Of a stretch of DNA of 64,000 nucleotides, positions 3,927 through 60,708 are shown piece after piece. A program made the position numbers and the translations under genes. The DNA is from a virus. The DNA lies in the IMG/VR virus record IMGVR_UViG_3300045685_000034, positions 4,507-68,506 of that record. One strand, written 5' to 3'. The notes below the pieces were generated by a model. The model saw nothing but the letters and a program-made list of their open reading frames with translations. It was not told the DNA's origin and did not search any database. Every line of letters starts with the position of its first letter. The first letter of the stretch is position 1.

Positions 3927-4670
3927 ATGTTAAATATCCGAATCGTAGGCAAGCAGTCTAACGGAGATTTTGTTGTCCGACCGATTGATGACAGTAAAGA
4001 GGAGTTAGAATCTCTCGTCAAACAGCGTAAAACGTTGCTGACGGCACAGGCGTTCAATCCAAATAAAGTAACTCGCCCACAACAGAAAATCGCTCACGCG
4101 TTGATTAGAGACGTTGACAGCTATACAGATAATGAATGGTTTATACAAAATACTGAAGATGATTTAAAAATTAAGTTTTGTATTGATCGTGGTTTTTCGT
4201 ATGAGAAGTTATTCTCACTGTCAAACTGCAGTAAAGATTTAGCAACACAGTTTATCTCATGGTTGGTTGAATACTGCTTTCATTATGATATTCCATTCGA
4301 CGGCAAAGATTTGTATTTGGTCCATGACACAAATAGAAAAATGTTCTTGTCAGCACTCCACAATCGCTGCTTTGTAACTCAAGCTCGCCGTCAGGATGCC
4401 GTTCTACACATCCACCATGTAAATGCTGTAGGGATGGGCAAACGTTCAAAAGTGGATCATCGTGGACGCTACTACATGATATTAAGGGCTGAGCTTCACA
4501 ATGAAATACATCAGCTTGGGTACGACGAGTTTTGCAAAAAATGGCATGTAGGAGCGATCAAACTCTCTGATCAACAAGTATTAGACTTCGGTCTTATGAG
4601 TGAAAAGCACATGAAAGAACTGGATGATAATCCAGATTATGAAATAAAAGATTGGCAGTTGCCGGATTAG
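3927..4670 (+). CDS. putative HNHc nuclease (DUF968-like)
   Basis: QQKIAHALIRD, RCFVT..HIHH..AVGMG; homolog at 51333. Confidence 0.8.
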   Translation: MLNIRIVGKQSNGDFVVRPIDDSKEELESLVKQRKTLLTAQAFNPNKVTRPQQKIAHALIRDVDSYTDNEWFIQNTEDDLKIKFCIDRGFSYEKLFSLSNCSKDLATQFISWLVEYCFHYDIPFDGKDLYLVHDTNRKMFLSALHNRCFVTQARRQDAVLHIHHVNAVGMGKRSKVDHRGRYYMILRAELHNEIHQLGYDEFCKKWHVGAIKLSDQQVLDFGLMSEKHMKELDDNPDYEIKDWQLPD

Positions 4671-6952: not shown

Positions 6953-7525
6953 ATGGATCAAAGGAAAAGATTAGCTGAGCTATTAAGCCGGACAGATTAT
7001 TGGACGAACGAAAGAGTCTTTAACGAAGCTGAAAAAATCTATAAAAATATGGTGGCGAAGAAAATGCAAAATAAGAAAAGAGATCGGACAGGCGAAAAGT
7101 ATGGGGAATTCACTATTATTCGACCAGGAGAAATCGACAAAGAATGGGTAGCTAGATGTGCCTGCGGTAAGGAGCGATTAGTGAAGAATCAGAATATGTC
7201 GAAACTCACGCATTGCAAAAGCTGCGCGGCAAAACTTCGAATGCAAAAGCGTACAAAGAAACCTAAAAAGCCGAAGAAAGACAAGTTTACAGAAAGACAG
7301 AACTGGATGGCACCAAAGCGGCCTAAATTCAAATTGGATGTTCTATATGAGTTGAACTACTCTCAATGCAATTTCCCATGTGTAGGAAAATTGATTAATG
7401 AATATGGTAAATCGGCAAGTTTTGAAGTCGTGGAATATCATGACTCGGACAAAGCGGTTTTGCGAATGCTAGGCTATCGTATATCTGTCAAAAAGAAAGC
7501 AGCGTTGGAATTATGCAGGGTATAA
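6953..7525 (+). CDS. hypothetical Cys-motif protein (paralog of 55868-56296)
   Basis: KKRDRTGE.Y, CACG, CKSC shared with the paralog. Confidence 0.75.
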   Translation: MDQRKRLAELLSRTDYWTNERVFNEAEKIYKNMVAKKMQNKKRDRTGEKYGEFTIIRPGEIDKEWVARCACGKERLVKNQNMSKLTHCKSCAAKLRMQKRTKKPKKPKKDKFTERQNWMAPKRPKFKLDVLYELNYSQCNFPCVGKLINEYGKSASFEVVEYHDSDKAVLRMLGYRISVKKKAALELCRV

Positions 7526-7716
7526 AAGAAATATTCTGGTCCAACGTCAACTGGCATCGTGTGAACAAAGACTTAAGTTGGACGGAATTAGTCGGAGGGC
7601 AAACAACAGGAGCAGTGAATAAAACCGGGAATATCACTTTGGAGACGGTACAACAAATCGCGAAAAAGTTAGATATTACTGACTATGCAATTCTTTTTGA
7701 AAGTTGGGAAGAGTAA
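7513..7716 (+). CDS. small HTH-like protein
   Basis: GNITLETVQQIAKKLDI. Confidence 0.6.
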   Translation: MQGIKEIFWSNVNWHRVNKDLSWTELVGGQTTGAVNKTGNITLETVQQIAKKLDITDYAILFESWEE

Positions 7717-7738
7717 TTCTTCTAATGCTTAAGAAAGG

Positions 7739-8749
7739 GTGATAAACGTGGAAATGAAAGAGAGTTTTATAAATTCTGTCATTCGTAACATGGAGCCTGA
7801 ACTTGAAGTTAATCAACTTAAGAAATTGAAAATTGTACTAACGATCAATTTAAATCATGTACGTGTAGAAAAAGAGAACACTGATCTAGTCATATACGAT
7901 GAATCGGGTGACATTGCTGCATACAAACAGTATTTTGTGTCAATGAAACTGCGCAATTTATCTAACGGCACGATAGAACTCGCTATGAGGACGATCGACG
8001 CCTTCCAAAGATCAGTGAAGAAACAATACAAGGACGTAACAACTCAAGATATTCGATTGTACATCGCGTACCGCGACATGAAGGATCATTTATCAAGCGC
8101 CACTTTGAATCGTGAACGCGGGTGCATCTGCAGGTTCTATACTTGGCTGTTCGAGGAAGAATATATCCCTAAGAACCCAGCAAAACGTGTTGAACCTATT
8201 AAGGTGGAGAAACGACTGAAAAAAGCCTTCACACCGATTGAAGTGGAACTAATGCGGAACGCCTGCAGGAAGCCAAAAGAAAAAGCAGTGTTTGAACTAT
8301 TGCTAAGCACGGGTTGTCGAGTCACTGAGTTAACTATGCTAGCAATGGAAAATTACGACCAACAAAGAGGGACCATTACAGTGATTGGAAAAGGCAATAA
8401 GGAGCGCACGGTCTTCGTCAACGCTCGCGCTAAAGTGGCAATTGATAATTACTTAATGATTAAACCGCATTTTGAAGGTTCGATCATTTGCGGCCTTCAT
8501 GGAGTTGGAACACAGATGACTTCGAATGGCATTCAAAAAATGGTCAAAGAGATTGCAAAGCGTGCTCATGTAGCTCACGCGCATCCGCATAAGTTTCGAA
8601 GAACTGCAGCAACATTCGCTCTGAAGAGAGGAATGAGCCTAAACGATGTAAGGCGCTTTCTTGGACACACGGATGTTGATACGACGCTGCAATATATTGA
8701 TACTAGCGGATCGGATCTGAAGTTAGAACATGAGAAGTTTGTCGCATAA
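7739..8749 (+). CDS. XerD-like tyrosine recombinase (no arm-binding domain); candidate cassette recombinase
   Basis: Catalytic set present: TGCRVTEL (R), GKGNKER (K), HPHKFRR (HxxR), LGH, TTLQY; N-terminal core-binding domain. Confidence 0.92.
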   Translation: MINVEMKESFINSVIRNMEPELEVNQLKKLKIVLTINLNHVRVEKENTDLVIYDESGDIAAYKQYFVSMKLRNLSNGTIELAMRTIDAFQRSVKKQYKDVTTQDIRLYIAYRDMKDHLSSATLNRERGCICRFYTWLFEEEYIPKNPAKRVEPIKVEKRLKKAFTPIEVELMRNACRKPKEKAVFELLLSTGCRVTELTMLAMENYDQQRGTITVIGKGNKERTVFVNARAKVAIDNYLMIKPHFEGSIICGLHGVGTQMTSNGIQKMVKEIAKRAHVAHAHPHKFRRTAATFALKRGMSLNDVRRFLGHTDVDTTLQYIDTSGSDLKLEHEKFVA

Positions 8750-8752
8750 AGC

Positions 8753-8776
8753 TCAACAGTTTGGGGCATTAGCGTA
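8753..8776 (+). other. 9-6-9 cassette-boundary site A (spacer TGGGGC)
   Basis: TCAACAGTT-TGGGGC-ATTAGCGTA, 3 bp after recombinase stop; same spacer as site T; arms look inverted relative to other copies. Confidence 0.6.
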
Positions 8777-8795
8777 GGTTTGGAAAGGAACACAT

Positions 8796-9026
8796 ATGTC
8801 ATATAAAGAAAAATGGATCAATGTTGGTTTTGATGAAGGCTATCTTTCCGCCTTGAAGGATGTTCTGAATTACACCATAGAGTTTGAAAACAATTCTGCC
8901 GATTCATTAATAACCAATATGAGACTCAGGAAGAGAGACTTTTTGAAATATTGGGAAGAAAATGAACTAGATTTTATTAAAGAAGACGAACTGAATAAAA
9001 AAGCATTAGAAATTTGGTTAATGTAA
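8796..9026 (+). CDS. hypothetical protein
   Basis: RBS GAAAGG; first array gene. Confidence 0.7.
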   Translation: MSYKEKWINVGFDEGYLSALKDVLNYTIEFENNSADSLITNMRLRKRDFLKYWEENELDFIKEDELNKKALEIWLM

Positions 9027-9304
9027 CTTACACTATCGGAGGATACAGAGGAGGTTTAATTTTGGAAAGACAGTTGCTTGAATGCAAGTATTGTAACCAA
9101 AAGGCGTTAATGCATGTTGACGATGAAGGTTCTTTTGGAGGAATGGGAGTGTCTTGGGATCACTACATTTGCAAAGTGTGCCTTAGCGAAAAAGATGTTT
9201 CAGTCAAATGGGATAACGAAATCATAAAATGGACAAAACGCGATCAATTTATGGTTCGCACTGACGATGATGTACGAGAATTTTATCATTCATCAGTCAG
9301 CTAA
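9014..9304 (+). CDS. hypothetical protein with two CxxC motifs
   Basis: CKYC, CKVC; stop lies in left arm of site C; start uncertain. Confidence 0.65.
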   Translation: MVNVTYTIGGYRGGLILERQLLECKYCNQKALMHVDDEGSFGGMGVSWDHYICKVCLSEKDVSVKWDNEIIKWTKRDQFMVRTDDDVREFYHSSVS

Positions 9305-9320
9305 CGACGTGAATAGAGGA
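9297..9320 (+). other. 9-6-9 site C (spacer GACGTG)
   Basis: TCAGCTAAC-GACGTG-AATAGAGGA. Confidence 0.7.
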
Positions 9321-9329
9321 GGAAAAACA

Positions 9330-25020: not shown

Positions 25021-25355
25021 GATATGACACACAGGTAACTTTCATTATCGAAAAAGAAGGCTATTACGACCCCAAACTCGGAGAGTATGTGGACGGAAAA
25101 AAAACCGAGATTTCAAAGTTAGCCAATGTAACTGATCTTGGAACGGATCGCTCAAAACAGCTTTTTGGAGAGATCAAGCAAGGAGCAAAAGTTATTCGCC
25201 TGCTGCGGCCGTATGTTAAACCTTGGGATTATGTGACAATTCTCAATAAGCTAACTGGTAAAATCCAGTCCTTTGAGATAATTACCGAACGAAACTTAAG
25301 GTTAAAAAACACATTCATCGTACAAGAGGTGTCTAAGAATGAAAGCACATCTTGA
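25017..25355 (+). CDS. head closure protein
   Basis: MRYDTQVTF; position. Confidence 0.75.
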   Translation: MRYDTQVTFIIEKEGYYDPKLGEYVDGKKTEISKLANVTDLGTDRSKQLFGEIKQGAKVIRLLRPYVKPWDYVTILNKLTGKIQSFEIITERNLRLKNTFIVQEVSKNESTS

Positions 25356-49398: not shown

Positions 49399-49638
49399 AT
49401 GAATGAATTTAATAACGCAATAAGTGTGAGCGGTTTAGGCGATGACATTAACTCAGCTATGATGCAAAACGCACAGCGACAAGTCATCCAAGAAATTATG
49501 AACGCAGCACAAAACGGTAGAACTGAATGCACTACACAATCAAAAGGAGCAACACCATCTTTTCTAGCACAACTTGAAGAAGAGGGTGTATTCAATATTC
49601 CTAAAGGAAACAGTGTCACCTTATTTTGGGAATGGTAA
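49399..49638 (+). CDS. hypothetical protein
   Basis: RBS AAGGAG. Confidence 0.7.
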   Translation: MNEFNNAISVSGLGDDINSAMMQNAQRQVIQEIMNAAQNGRTECTTQSKGATPSFLAQLEEEGVFNIPKGNSVTLFWEW

Positions 49639-49661
49639 ACAAAACGAAGGGTGGAAGAAAG

Positions 49662-50333
49662 ATGACGGAAAAAACTTTCAACGAAAAAGTTGTATCTGTA
49701 CAAAGTAGTTTGAAGGCTCCTAAGGGTCAATTTAATAAGTTCGGTAAATATAACTATCGGTCCTTAGAGGATATTAACGAAGCAGTAAAACCATTATTGG
49801 CTAAAGAAGGGCTGAAACTAACGATTAGCGATGAGCTTGTTTTAATTGGAGATCGAATCTACGTGAAATCCACTGCACATCTCTCAGATGGCAGTGAGTA
49901 CATCAATGTTAGTGGTTACGCAAGAGAGGCAGAATCTAAGAAGGGAATGGACGAGTCGCAAATTACAGGGACAGCTTCATCATATGCCAGAAAATACGCG
50001 CTCAACGGTCTGTTTCTTATTGACGATACCAAAGATGCTGATACAAATGAAAATCAAAATGAACGAAATGAACGGTCTAAAACTCAAAGCAACAAACGTC
50101 CTCCGCAAGAAAGCAAAGGAACAAAATCAGCTGATAAGACTTCTAAAGAATTATCGAACGCTCAGAGAGATATAGCGATCCAAAAAATGACGGAATTTTC
50201 AAATGTGCAATCAATGACTATCCAACAGGCAACAGAAAAACTGTTTCCATATCTGAAAATCAACTCAAAATTATCAGACCTTACGTCAGATGATTACGGC
50301 GTATTAATGAATTACTTAAATCAACATTTATAA
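49662..50333 (+). CDS. ERF-family single-strand annealing protein
   Basis: LKAPKGQFNKFGKYNYRSLEDI, GTASSYARKYAL. Confidence 0.92.
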   Translation: MTEKTFNEKVVSVQSSLKAPKGQFNKFGKYNYRSLEDINEAVKPLLAKEGLKLTISDELVLIGDRIYVKSTAHLSDGSEYINVSGYAREAESKKGMDESQITGTASSYARKYALNGLFLIDDTKDADTNENQNERNERSKTQSNKRPPQESKGTKSADKTSKELSNAQRDIAIQKMTEFSNVQSMTIQQATEKLFPYLKINSKLSDLTSDDYGVLMNYLNQHL

Positions 50334-56314: not shown

Positions 56315-56623
56315 ATGGACGAACTAATACAAATGATCGAAGAGTGGTCGAAAGAACGCGGAATCAATAAAGCAAATCCTCAAAAACAGATGCTTAAACT
56401 GTACGAGGAGATCGGCGAAACGTCAGCCGCTGTTGTCAGAGACGATAAAGATGCCCTTAGAGACGCGATAGGCGATTCGGTTATAACATTACTCAATTTA
56501 AGTTTGCAAACAGATATGAGCTTGTATGAGTGCATGATGCACGCTTACGGAGAAATCAATGGACGAGACGGCAAAATGATCAACGGTATGTTTGTAAAAT
56601 CGGAAGATTTGAGGATTGGATAG
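56315..56623 (+). CDS. MazG-like NTP pyrophosphohydrolase
   Basis: KQMLKLYEEIGE, DAIGD, EINGRDGKMING.FVK. Confidence 0.9.
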   Translation: MDELIQMIEEWSKERGINKANPQKQMLKLYEEIGETSAAVVRDDKDALRDAIGDSVITLLNLSLQTDMSLYECMMHAYGEINGRDGKMINGMFVKSEDLRIG

Positions 56624-56626
56624 CCT

Positions 56627-56815
56627 ATGCCAAGAAAAATAATCAGCGAGATTGCAGCTGAGTACGGTTATCAGCGGCTTAGAAAATACAGACAATGGGA
56701 TGACGTGCATTATTCTGCTGAAGTCAATGGCGTAGTGATCGTCATTAATATTGCAACAAGAGAATTATATGAGCGGAATCCGTTTACTAAAAAGCTAGTT
56801 AAAAAGGTCCGGTAA
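56627..56815 (+). CDS. hypothetical protein
   Basis: Stop lies in left arm of site T. Confidence 0.65.
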   Translation: MPRKIISEIAAEYGYQRLRKYRQWDDVHYSAEVNGVVIVINIATRELYERNPFTKKLVKKVR

Positions 56816-56831
56816 GTGGGGCAATTAAGTA
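56808..56831 (+). other. 9-6-9 site T (spacer TGGGGC), first of array 2
   Basis: TCCGGTAAG-TGGGGC-AATTAAGTA. Confidence 0.65.
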
Positions 56832-56847
56832 GAAAAAAGGTGATCAC

Positions 56848-57114
56848 ATGACCAATAAATTGCCTACTGTTCGAGTCATTAAAAACACTCATGAAAAACT
56901 CAGAAGGCTGGAAAAACAACTCTCGGAGATAATGAGTGAAAAGGGCTTTGATGGTGGATTCACTTATAGAGCAGATGAATACAATCTTTGCTACGAATGG
57001 GAATATGAGCAAATTAGCATGGTTTCAATCGTTGAAAATCAAAAAGAATTGGATTATCTGCTTGAATCTAGTTTTGATGAAGCTGTCAAATTTTTGGAAG
57101 ATCGAAGTGTTTAA
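56848..57114 (+). CDS. hypothetical cassette gene
   Basis: Lies between sites T and J. Confidence 0.7.
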   Translation: MTNKLPTVRVIKNTHEKLRRLEKQLSEIMSEKGFDGGFTYRADEYNLCYEWEYEQISMVSIVENQKELDYLLESSFDEAVKFLEDRSV

Positions 57115-57115
57115 G

Positions 57116-57139
57116 TCAAGTCACGGAGGAAACAGCCAT
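57116..57139 (+). other. 9-6-9 site J (spacer GGAGGA), degenerate right arm
   Basis: TCAAGTCAC-GGAGGA-AACAGCCAT. Confidence 0.55.
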
Positions 57140-57161
57140 AAATGGAGCGATCAAATAGGTT

Positions 57162-57440
57162 TTGAAGGGAGTGATTATTTTGTTTCTCAAGGGTGCAAAT
57201 ATTGACCGAGAAGAATTATTTCGAATCCTAGTTGAAGACTATGAAAATGTAAAAAGCACATATACAAACACGATGCTAGGGGAGCCAAGAGAGATCACTT
57301 ATGCAAAGGGAAAACTCGATGGCGCATGTATGGCTTTAGGAATTGAATATGAAATCATTGAGGAAAAAATAGTATTCAAAACCTTCATGAGCGATAAGAA
57401 AGTTTTTGAATTACCGTTTAAACCAGAAAAACCGTGGTAA
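57162..57440 (+). CDS. hypothetical cassette gene
   Basis: Lies between sites J and K. Confidence 0.7.
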   Translation: MKGVIILFLKGANIDREELFRILVEDYENVKSTYTNTMLGEPREITYAKGKLDGACMALGIEYEIIEEKIVFKTFMSDKKVFELPFKPEKPW

Positions 57441-57446
57441 TTTTTG

Positions 57447-57470
57447 TCAGGTAACGGAGGATATCAACAA
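57447..57470 (+). other. 9-6-9 site K (spacer GGAGGA)
   Basis: TCAGGTAAC-GGAGGA-TATCAACAA. Confidence 0.68.
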
Positions 57471-57485
57471 GGAAGGAGTTCAATA

Positions 57486-57764
57486 ATGATTGAACGCAGA
57501 ACCAAAGGTTTAAAAGTCGGAGACACTATGTATTCATATGATGGCATGTGGTTTCCGTTTGAATCAATAAAAGCGTATTTAGAATACGATCCAAGTGCCA
57601 CGTCAGTTTTGAAAGGCAAGATAAAGTGTTTCGAAGTGGAAGGAATCTCGGATGAAGATACAGCCTATTTTGATAGGATCGAAGATTATCAAGGTAGAAG
57701 ACCGCATTTCATTGTTGATTCTGTCGAATTGGTGAAAGTTAAAAATGAACTAAAGGTCAAGTAA
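57486..57764 (+). CDS. hypothetical cassette gene
   Basis: Lies between K and L; stop in left arm of L. Confidence 0.7.
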   Translation: MIERRTKGLKVGDTMYSYDGMWFPFESIKAYLEYDPSATSVLKGKIKCFEVEGISDEDTAYFDRIEDYQGRRPHFIVDSVELVKVKNELKVK

Positions 57765-57780
57765 CGGAGGATATTACGGA
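57757..57780 (+). other. 9-6-9 site L (spacer GGAGGA)
   Basis: TCAAGTAAC-GGAGGA-TATTACGGA. Confidence 0.7.
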
Positions 57781-57800
57781 CTTAGAAAGGAAAGTAAAAA

Positions 57801-58022
57801 ATGAGTTTAAGAAGTGATTTAGACAATTTTTTTGAATCTGTAGAGCGTGGTTCAAAACTTTTTCCTTCAACTAGAAAAAGAAAAGAAATTGACGTATGGA
57901 TTGATCCCGATAGTGACATTATTTTCCAAATTGATGAAGAAATAGCTATCTTGTCGATAACAGAAGCTAGAGAATTAGGAAATATATTATTAGATAAATC
58001 TATTGAAGCACTAGAAAATTAA
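57801..58022 (+). CDS. hypothetical cassette gene
   Basis: Lies between sites L and M. Confidence 0.7.
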   Translation: MSLRSDLDNFFESVERGSKLFPSTRKRKEIDVWIDPDSDIIFQIDEEIAILSITEARELGNILLDKSIEALEN

Positions 58023-58046
58023 TCCGTAAACGACCACTATCACGGA
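58023..58046 (+). other. 9-6-9 site M (spacer GACCAC)
   Basis: TCCGTAAAC-GACCAC-TATCACGGA; arms dyadic TCCGT/ACGGA. Confidence 0.7.
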
Positions 58047-58062
58047 GAAAGAAGGTTTTAGA

Positions 58063-58467
58063 ATGATTGATCCAAAATATAAAGCAATCGTCGAAATCGA
58101 AGGCGATAAAACAGATTTTGAATACAGAGGTTTTCAATGCCACATTCGGAGAGTGAATCCTGAATACTCAGGTCATCTGTGTGGTTATGTTGAAATACCT
58201 GCAAATCATCCGGTACATGGAATGGATTATGACCAAGTAGAAGAATTCTATAATTACGAGCTACCAGCTCATGGTGGTCTGACCTTCGCAAGTGAAGTTG
58301 AGAATGCATACTGGATTGGATTTGATTGTGCTCACTCAGGAGACCTTTGTCCTGCTTATCCAGAGGGCGGTCAAATTTTTCGATGGTCAGGGGATTCTTA
58401 TAAAACAATGGGGTATGTTGAACAAAATATTAAAGAGATCGTTGATTTCATGGAGGATAGCAAATGA
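58063..58467 (+). CDS. conserved phage protein
   Basis: GHLCGYVEIP, HGGLTF, WIGFDCAHSGD. Confidence 0.8.
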   Translation: MIDPKYKAIVEIEGDKTDFEYRGFQCHIRRVNPEYSGHLCGYVEIPANHPVHGMDYDQVEEFYNYELPAHGGLTFASEVENAYWIGFDCAHSGDLCPAYPEGGQIFRWSGDSYKTMGYVEQNIKEIVDFMEDSK

Positions 58468-58838: not shown

Positions 58839-58862
58839 TCAGCTAACCACGCCTATAAAGTA
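58839..58862 (+). other. 9-6-9 site N (spacer CACGCC)
   Basis: TCAGCTAAC-CACGCC-TATAAAGTA. Confidence 0.7.
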
Positions 58863-60684: not shown

Positions 60685-60708
60685 TCCGATAACCACGCCT
60701 ACAGAAGA
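60685..60708 (+). other. 9-6-9 site O (spacer CACGCC)
   Basis: TCCGATAAC-CACGCC-TACAGAAGA. Confidence 0.7.

Follow-up and report, generated by a model that had tools for sequence, protein, structure and literature searches.

The IMG/VR virus record IMGVR_UViG_3300045685_000034 spans 69 kb, and the window considered here is a 64,000-nucleotide (nt) stretch of it (positions 4,507 to 68,506 of the record) that holds two prophage-like regions. Three sites with a common GGAGGA centre, designated J, K and L, are located in the second region, within its early row of accessory genes, and comparison with related phages indicates that they are three copies of one positional class, or "address 2", within a family of short linkers situated between cistrons. 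Alignments among relatives have shown these linkers to be places of gene exchange, the left arm remaining linked to the gene before it and the right arm to the gene after it, with the change of partner falling at the central hexamer. As an explanation for this pattern, recombination over short homology at the ordered linkers, mediated by an Erf protein or by host RecA, is ranked first and is given roughly an even chance of being correct.

The linkers are built to one scheme, consisting of a stop codon, TCCGSTAAC, a hexamer specific to the position, TATCAAGGAGG, within which the ribosome-binding site (RBS) lies, and a start codon. The consensus drawn from 95 distinct sites reads stop (TAG or TAA), T, TCCGSTAAC, six variable bases that often end in C, TATCAAGGA, GGAAA and start, with AAGGAGG contained in the right arm, and it is because of this consensus that the unit can be recognized as a complete intercistronic linker whose right arm carries the RBS. 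When the window was scanned with a position weight matrix (PWM) that ignored the central hexamer, every site scoring 13 or more was found on the + strand, and all of them lay in the two accessory rows except for a match at 25031 (score 14.6), which is taken for a false hit. The portion of the row surrounding J, K and L is arranged as follows:

56627-56815: gene 2, whose stop codon is overlapped by site T
56808-56831, + strand: site T, address 1, with hexamer TGGGGC and a PWM score of 19; it precedes gene 3
56848-57114, + strand: gene 3 (88 amino acids), a module of the slot between addresses 1 and 2
57116-57139, + strand: site J, a decayed copy of address 2, with GGAGGA at 57125-57130 and a PWM score of 10.9
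57134-57157, + strand: site J', a relic of address 1, with TGGAGC at 57143-57148 and right arm GATCAAATA; the 5' boundary of the gene 4 module
57180-57440, + strand: gene 4 (86 amino acids, 261 nt), its start matching that of its homologues
57447-57470, + strand: site K, address 2, with GGAGGA at 57456-57461, right arm TATCAACAA and a PWM score of 21.6
57486-57764, + strand: gene 5 (92 amino acids)
57757-57780, + strand: site L, address 2, with GGAGGA at 57766-57771 and a PWM score of 22.8
57801-58022, + strand: gene 6 (73 amino acids)
58023-58046, + strand: site M, address 3, with GACCAC at 58032-58037; it lies before gene 7

An earlier, sequence-only reading of this region had singled out the GGAGGA centre common to J, K and L, and the three sites are real by their coordinates and by a likeness that extends well past the hexamer. 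A 19-mer based on L finds J, K and L exactly when up to 3 mismatches are allowed (three matches, against 0.01 expected from shuffles), and the three sites are the sole occurrences of the 16-mer core across the whole 69-kb record. Over the 19 bases, K agrees with L at 18 and J agrees with L at 16, the longest exact runs being 14 and 8 nt, respectively. The decay of J is evident from a C at position 7 of its left arm, where all 95 of the 95 family sites have A, and from the lack of the usual right arm. The relic site J' overlaps the right arm of J. J' itself aligns with the site composed of TGGGGC and TATCAAGTA ahead of gene 4 homologues in three related stretches (L139, L140 and L141; L numbers denote stretches or contigs fetched for comparison and G numbers denote genomes), while the homologous counterparts of K are the GGAGGA site that precedes gene 5 in L133-L137 and a GGAGAA site located after gene 4 in L140/L141. 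The left arm of L consists of the last codons and stop of gene 5, and its right arm, TATTACGGA, moves with gene 6. The earlier reading also had each pair of sites bracketing a single gene, which holds for gene 5 at 57486-57764 exactly as claimed; for gene 4, the start at 57180 is most likely, judging by the homologues, rather than the start at 57162 that would give the longer open reading frame (ORF) 57162-57440.

That J, K and L represent nothing more than a chance likeness of three RBSs, or a tandem duplication of a gene with its spacer, can hardly be credited. GGAGGA is indeed common, with 41 copies in the window, and by the earlier coordinates both ORFs were 279 nt long. The idea was nevertheless refuted, as the likeness covers 16-19 nt rather than 6, the family extends over many phages, and gene 4 measures 261 nt; moreover, the proteins of genes 4 and 5 are unrelated (E = 0.24), and the J-K-L layout is therefore not a tandem gene duplication.

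The hexamer marks the place of a linker within the row, and seven addresses are distinguished:

address 1: TGGGGC
address 2: GGAGGA, GGAAGA or GGACGN
address 3: GAC.. or GAA..
address 4: CAC..
address 5: TCAGCC
address 6: CGAAGC or CGACCC
address 7: GTCGCC

Over 33 arrays, the order of the hexamer classes gave 198 concordant against 5 discordant pairs, a result reached by none of 2000 within-array shuffles; the figure is descriptive, and the effect is still very large. GGAGGA occupies the second address in L196, L202, L205, L206, L208, L212, L133 and L141, as well as at 9029 in the window's other prophage, while the hexamer class of M is found directly after gene 5 in L133-L137 and third in order in L202/L203. 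Likewise, homologues of gene 2 in L199 and L201 have a TGGGGC site after them, as gene 2 does here. Five independent arrays (the window, L122/L128, L133, L141 and L212) contain address 2 more than once, and the triple address 2 of the window is therefore a recurrent state. In full, the window's row runs from T (address 1) through gene 3, J (address 2), the relic J' (address 1), gene 4, K (address 2), gene 5, L (address 2) and gene 6 to M (address 3). Composite double sites of the form "2 then 1" occur in the window (J.J') and twice in L212, and in L141 three address-2-like sites follow one another, two of which stand back to back (2.2). Another repeated address is seen further along the window's row, where address-4 sites at 58839-58862 and 60685-60708 (both CACGCC) flank a module of two methyltransferases. 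In L212 (G020:C2:534000-550000), at about 7300-10000, the intervals between address 1 and address 2 hold genes of the opposite strand, including a 220-amino-acid ORF and small membrane-protein-like ORFs. Modules need not be co-oriented single genes, as this stretch makes plain, and its opposite-strand genes could be host-benefit or defence cargo.

The linker family was found in every related phage stretch fetched and in 16 of 25 genomes of the genus that holds Enterococcus pseudoavium. A scan with the strict consensus returned no viral contigs and three genome contigs, one from E. pseudoavium and two from metagenome-assembled genomes (MAGs) of Syntrophaceae/Syntrophobacterales. The latter two (L162 and L164) are exact matches to the strict 26-nt consensus far outside Enterococcus, for which chance, contamination or a wider range are possible. 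In G015, a linker-like sequence with hexamer TTGTTC is present in seven identical copies (e.g., C1:63750 and C1:798670) and is probably an unrelated repeated element. The 16-mer core, when searched for in the viral collection, gave single scattered matches only, as would be expected by chance. Searches of the viral and genome collections for related loci with genes 3, 4, 5, 6 and 7 returned no relatives, whereas protein look-ups did find them, and in a blastn comparison with a phage database the MazG gene was the sole match. No description of the linker family was found in searches of the literature.

One line of evidence for the linkers as module boundaries is the behaviour of the genes between them. 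Gene 3 has a 57% homologue in one other context (L155), and the upstream stretch comprising right arm and RBS is common to both. Homologues of gene 4 occur in three neighbourhoods with three different upstream neighbours, those of gene 5 (76-87% protein identity) in at least six neighbourhoods, and gene 6 has a 97% copy in one other phage (L154), where it sits between two GGAAGA sites identical to each other at 21 of 24 bases. In these settings, the neighbours of the gene 3-6 homologues are unrelated to those in the window. Blocks of homology run from 57137/43 to 57435/53 for gene 4, from 57471/85 to 57748/68 for gene 5, and from 57763 to 58030 for gene 6; in other words, homology ends inside or beside the sites and not at breakpoints away from them. 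The GGAGGA site ahead of gene 5 has been found behind five different upstream genes and the TGGGGC site ahead of the gene 4 homologues behind three, such that the same short sequence recurs at junctions whose flanking genes differ. In L133-L137, an address-3 site of the M class directly follows gene 5, and what the window has in addition is exactly gene 6 and L.

Further evidence comes from the end points of the exchanges themselves. Among same-address pairs that share one flank only (13 the left and 15 the right), the arm on the shared side was 0.91 identical (n = 28), while the arm on the non-shared side remained at the level of the background, with identities of 0.74 and 0.70 compared with 0.67 and 0.73 in the 659 pairs that lack a shared flank. 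In G012, a block bounded by the hexamers of addresses 3 and 4 is identical at 540 of 540 positions in two co-resident prophages (L202 and L203), whose DNA to either side of it is unrelated. Two prophages of G021 are identical at 1619 of 1619 positions from the GGAGGA hexamer to the address-5 site, and three prophages of the same genome (L205, L206 and L207) have in common a 318-nt single-gene block, running from GGAGGA to address 3, that is 99% identical. To judge from their identity, the blocks in co-resident prophages reflect very recent exchange inside one cell line, and their ends lie within linker sequence. Among the internal ends of blocks at least 97% identical, 12 of 29 were no more than 15 nt from a site centre, where 2% would be expected, and several of the others lay at weaker sites that the matrix had missed. 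Between the window's own two prophages, no recent exchange was found.

About seven standardized linkers, with GGAGGA second, punctuate the early accessory-gene row of temperate phages residing in the E. pseudoavium genus. Under the proposed mechanism, recombination between short, near-identical linkers, carried out by an Erf-type annealing protein of the phage or by host RecA, would replace the intervening genes during co-infection or between co-resident prophages. In the window, two "1 to 2" modules (genes 3 and 4) and two "2 to 3" modules (genes 5 and 6) have probably been stacked, thereby multiplying address 2. Because the resulting copies are too short and imperfect to recombine often, with exact runs of only 14 and 8 nt, the arrangement is stable in the present genome. 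A candidate agent is encoded upstream of the row:

49626-50333, + strand: an Erf-family single-strand annealing protein (Pfam ERF, E = 2.4e-37)

With Erf encoded here, no Xer-like gene present here, and four array-bearing genomes lacking an orthologue of that gene, gene content makes a short-homology agent the most likely one. Also in its favour, the minimal efficient homology reported for annealing proteins of the Red-beta type is only about 23-27 bp, and divergence is tolerated (PMC3945230). Hexamers also vary within a class, and composite double sites require an event other than like-with-like exchange. The earlier reading had taken the spacer-matched repeats for a footprint of circular cassettes inserted by a recombinase; its view of the sites as real module boundaries and exchange points was borne out, while circular cassettes and a dedicated recombinase were not, and short-homology recombination explains the same footprint. 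The composite J.J', with address 2 beside a relic address 1, is not a product of insertion at one spacer, and the recent events in relatives are replacements between two different addresses rather than insertions at one.

Several points weigh against recombination over short homology. The exact identity of same-address linkers in different phages is often only 14-20 nt, which falls short of the 23-27 bp given for efficient recombination by annealing proteins. Plain homologous recombination leaves unexplained why the same arms occur at all seven addresses, and it likewise leaves unexplained the imperfect dyad around a 6-bp centre, a layout that fits the core site of a tyrosine recombinase. In 8 of the 34 stretches searched, the array is headed by a gene for an Xer-like recombinase, which immediately precedes the first site. 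A crossover between like addresses cannot by itself account for the composite sites (2.1, once in the window and twice in L212, and 2.2, in L141), for which one further kind of event or more is required. Finally, the order and the arm statistics rely on hexamer classes defined from the very data to which they were applied, and since the phages are related to one another, the pairs are not independent.

Another means by which these rows could have been assembled, and one that we hold only tentatively, is site-specific cassette exchange. Here, the 9-6-9 sites would be cores for an Xer-like tyrosine recombinase acting in trans from a co-resident prophage, with the hexamer as the overlap region that has to match. 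It is possible, if somewhat doubtful, that the seven addresses behave like heterospecific lox/FRT sites and that J, K and L are footprints of insertion at address 2, perhaps via circular intermediates. More broadly, one might suppose, with the same reserve, a natural form of recombinase-mediated cassette exchange, in which an Xer-like enzyme, encoded in cis or by a co-resident prophage, joins only 9-6-9 sites with matched centres and in doing so allows genes to be swapped, stacked or dropped without their order being scrambled. Like heterospecific lox/FRT sites and Xer/dif core sites (with their 6-bp centre), the linkers have conserved arms that flank a centre expected to decide pairing, and the order and orientation of the intervening DNA are kept. 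In those systems, the arms are clearly inverted and the enzyme is proven, whereas the linkers have a weak dyad and a right arm that doubles as an RBS.

Such site-specific exchange is favoured by the 6-bp centre and conserved arms, by the direct orientation of all sites, and by an imperfect dyad: among 77 sites selected with the right arm disregarded, 25 (32%, where chance would give 6%) have a right arm in which 5 or more of the 9 positions mirror the consensus of the left arm. Arms that segregate with their flanks are what strand exchange within the hexamer predicts, and direct repeats of one hexamer flank gene 6 in L154 and gene 5 in the window. On the other side of the ledger, the commonest right arm is simply an RBS, and dyad symmetry is weak on average (about 2/9 for K, 5/9 for L and 3/9 for J). 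Variation within hexamer classes (GACAGC, GACCAC, GAAGAC and others) is ill-suited to a strict requirement for overlap identity, and the joining of like with like does not yield the composite 2.1 and 2.2 double sites. The dyad also bears on an earlier suggestion that the right arm of L and the left arm of M would form a near-palindromic junction in an L-M circle. A perfect 7-nt inverted repeat is present (TTACGGA at 57774-57780 in the L right arm and TCCGTAA at 58023-58029 in the M left arm); it reflects a property of the family, however, and is not special to an L-M circle. In a comparison with host dif, a Bacillus dif pattern gave dif-like candidates in 2 of 5 genomes, with a likeness to the linker arms of about 5/9 per arm, which is to be treated as a lead only.

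The distribution of the Xer-like recombinase gene points both ways. The gene lies just upstream of the first site in the 8 stretches already mentioned and is carried by G012 and G021, the two genomes with 100%-identical exchanged blocks. No such gene is present in this prophage's array or within the fetched stretch in the remaining 26 of the 34 stretches searched, and G007, G009, G011 and G020 have arrays without an Xer-like orthologue, all of which counts against a dedicated enzyme. An address-1 site directly follows the recombinase gene in L140 and L142, and the gene may, from its position, be one more module of the row. Around the Xer-like gene (7513-8749 in the window, 741-2007 in L134 and 4187-5952 in L140), a small gene of the LexA_DNA_bind type lies directly upstream in L134 and two small genes upstream in L140.

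Excision products and deletion variants, which site-specific exchange would lead one to look for, were not seen in contig look-ups. When the exact gene 3, gene 5 and gene 6 proteins were each looked up, in three overlapping sets of 25 contigs, no circular cassettes, deletion variants or empty sites were found; all copies had genes 3-4-5-6, and over 56600-58100 they were 99.9-100% identical to the window. In Logan contigs of four runs over the stretch, no joints or variants appeared, an uninformative result since contigs drop rare forms. Junction patterns combining the J left arm with the K or L right arm, or the K left arm with the L right arm, gave no matches in the metagenome and viral collections, but the native K/L pattern gave none either, leaving the search without a positive control and equally uninformative. 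No sign that the triplet is currently active was found in these look-ups.

A third way to understand the linkers is as expression signals in the main, serving translational coupling, as a stand-by ribosome site, or as a binding site for a regulator, with recombination ending there for the reason that they are the sole neutral sequence shared; this seems unlikely. By the same improbable account, the three GGAGGA copies would be extra or relic Shine-Dalgarno (SD) sequences. In its favour, the sites lie strictly between stop and start codons and are always co-oriented with transcription, the right arm has AAGGAGG, and GGAGGA, a canonical SD, is itself the working one for gene 5 in L133-L137 and for a gene in L196, at a distance of 5-7 nt from the start codon. 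The closest analogue that has been described, the start-associated sequence (SAS) of Cluster K mycobacteriophages, is thought to be translational (PMC3203893). This account does not explain, however, why ordered hexamers unrelated to an SD (TGGGGC, CACGCC, TCAGCC, CGAAGC and GTCGCC) stand beside unrelated genes, and some sites have no start codon behind them, as in L212 and at sites followed by terminators. In the window, the GGAGGA hexamers of J, K and L lie 49, 24 and 29 nt upstream of the next starts, and the genes after J, K and L are each served by a separate SD 6-8 nt from the start codon (that of gene 5 is at 57471-57478, just after K); because of this distance and these separate SDs, GGAGGA is not the RBS of the next gene.

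Comparison with SAS (PMC3203893) is nonetheless instructive. Both elements are asymmetric, contain an SD core, and occur in one orientation just upstream of the starts of non-structural genes; the upstream stop can in each case be contained in the repeat, and both serve various gene families. The SD core 3-7 nt before starts is seen for the right arm of the linker family, in contrast to the more distant hexamers of J, K and L. An extended form of SAS adds inverted repeats with a variable spacer (PMC3203893). SAS differs in being a single 13-bp consensus without position-specific centres or fixed order, with no reported role as an exchange end point, and in belonging to phages of another host phylum.

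Secondary structure offers no common signal. Folds of J, K, L, M and T as RNA and as single-stranded DNA gave no common structure, and those of J, K and L (both strands) were no better than shuffles, the RNA z-scores of J, K and L being +1.6, -1.1 and -0.1. Lone low z-scores near K are due to an unrelated hairpin over the start codon of gene 5, a 7-bp stem (GTTCAAT/ATTGAAC, 57478-57495) that encloses the ATG and of which relatives retain a shorter version. In one metatranscriptome run, contigs break at 57731-57750, just before L, with depths of 12 and 24 on either side; this is too weak to indicate an RNA end and is not counted as evidence.

Integrons have been reported in phage genomes (PMC9892861), and the resemblance deserves comment: in both integrons and linker arrays, modules of mostly one gene each are lined up in a single orientation and bounded by recombination sites, and some of the arrays here are headed by a tyrosine recombinase. 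An integron cassette array was considered and rejected. Unlike integrons, J, K and L have no attC-like fold, and the recombinase of the window's other prophage scores 67.5 bits against an integron-integrase (IntI) cut-off of 265, Xer models fitting better, while most arrays have no recombinase at all. In addition, centres are ordered by position, and the events are replacements between two different sites, as opposed to insertion at attI.

As for the wider setting, the row is preceded by genes for Erf, DUF1351, an HNH nuclease, a replication initiator, DnaB, RusA, SSB and MazG, and it is followed by DNA methyltransferases and DUF1642. Genes 3-6 have no family in Pfam, PHROGs or the protein atlas. 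Enterococcus genomes, together with metagenomes from gut and insects, are the sources of the relatives and exact copies.

Phage mosaicism is an old question, in which homologous exchange at short boundary sequences has been set against random illegitimate joining followed by selection. Under the modular theory, short conserved boundary (linker) sequences were proposed for lambdoid phages, yet they are said to be unidentifiable at most junctions (PMC3029335). The linkers described here resemble those boundary sequences in being short, in lying at module junctions between unrelated genes, and in acting as islands of homology for general or phage-encoded recombination. Unlike them, they belong to one family with common arms and about seven ordered hexamers, they include the RBS, and exchanges of very recent date can be traced to them. 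Only rarely has it been possible to identify boundary sequences, and the present ones are plain to see, at about 24 bases, in a fixed order, in many prophages of one genus, and with 100%-identical blocks ending in them. The multiplied GGAGGA further indicates that one address can be copied, so that one slot can hold several genes. If a recombinase does turn out to be responsible, the linkers would constitute a natural set of heterospecific sites, of interest for mobile-element biology and as standard junctions in phage building. In either case, the question of mosaicism becomes testable at the bench in a single system, both as to the agent (Erf, RecA or an Xer-like enzyme) and as to the role of the hexamer in the choice of partner.

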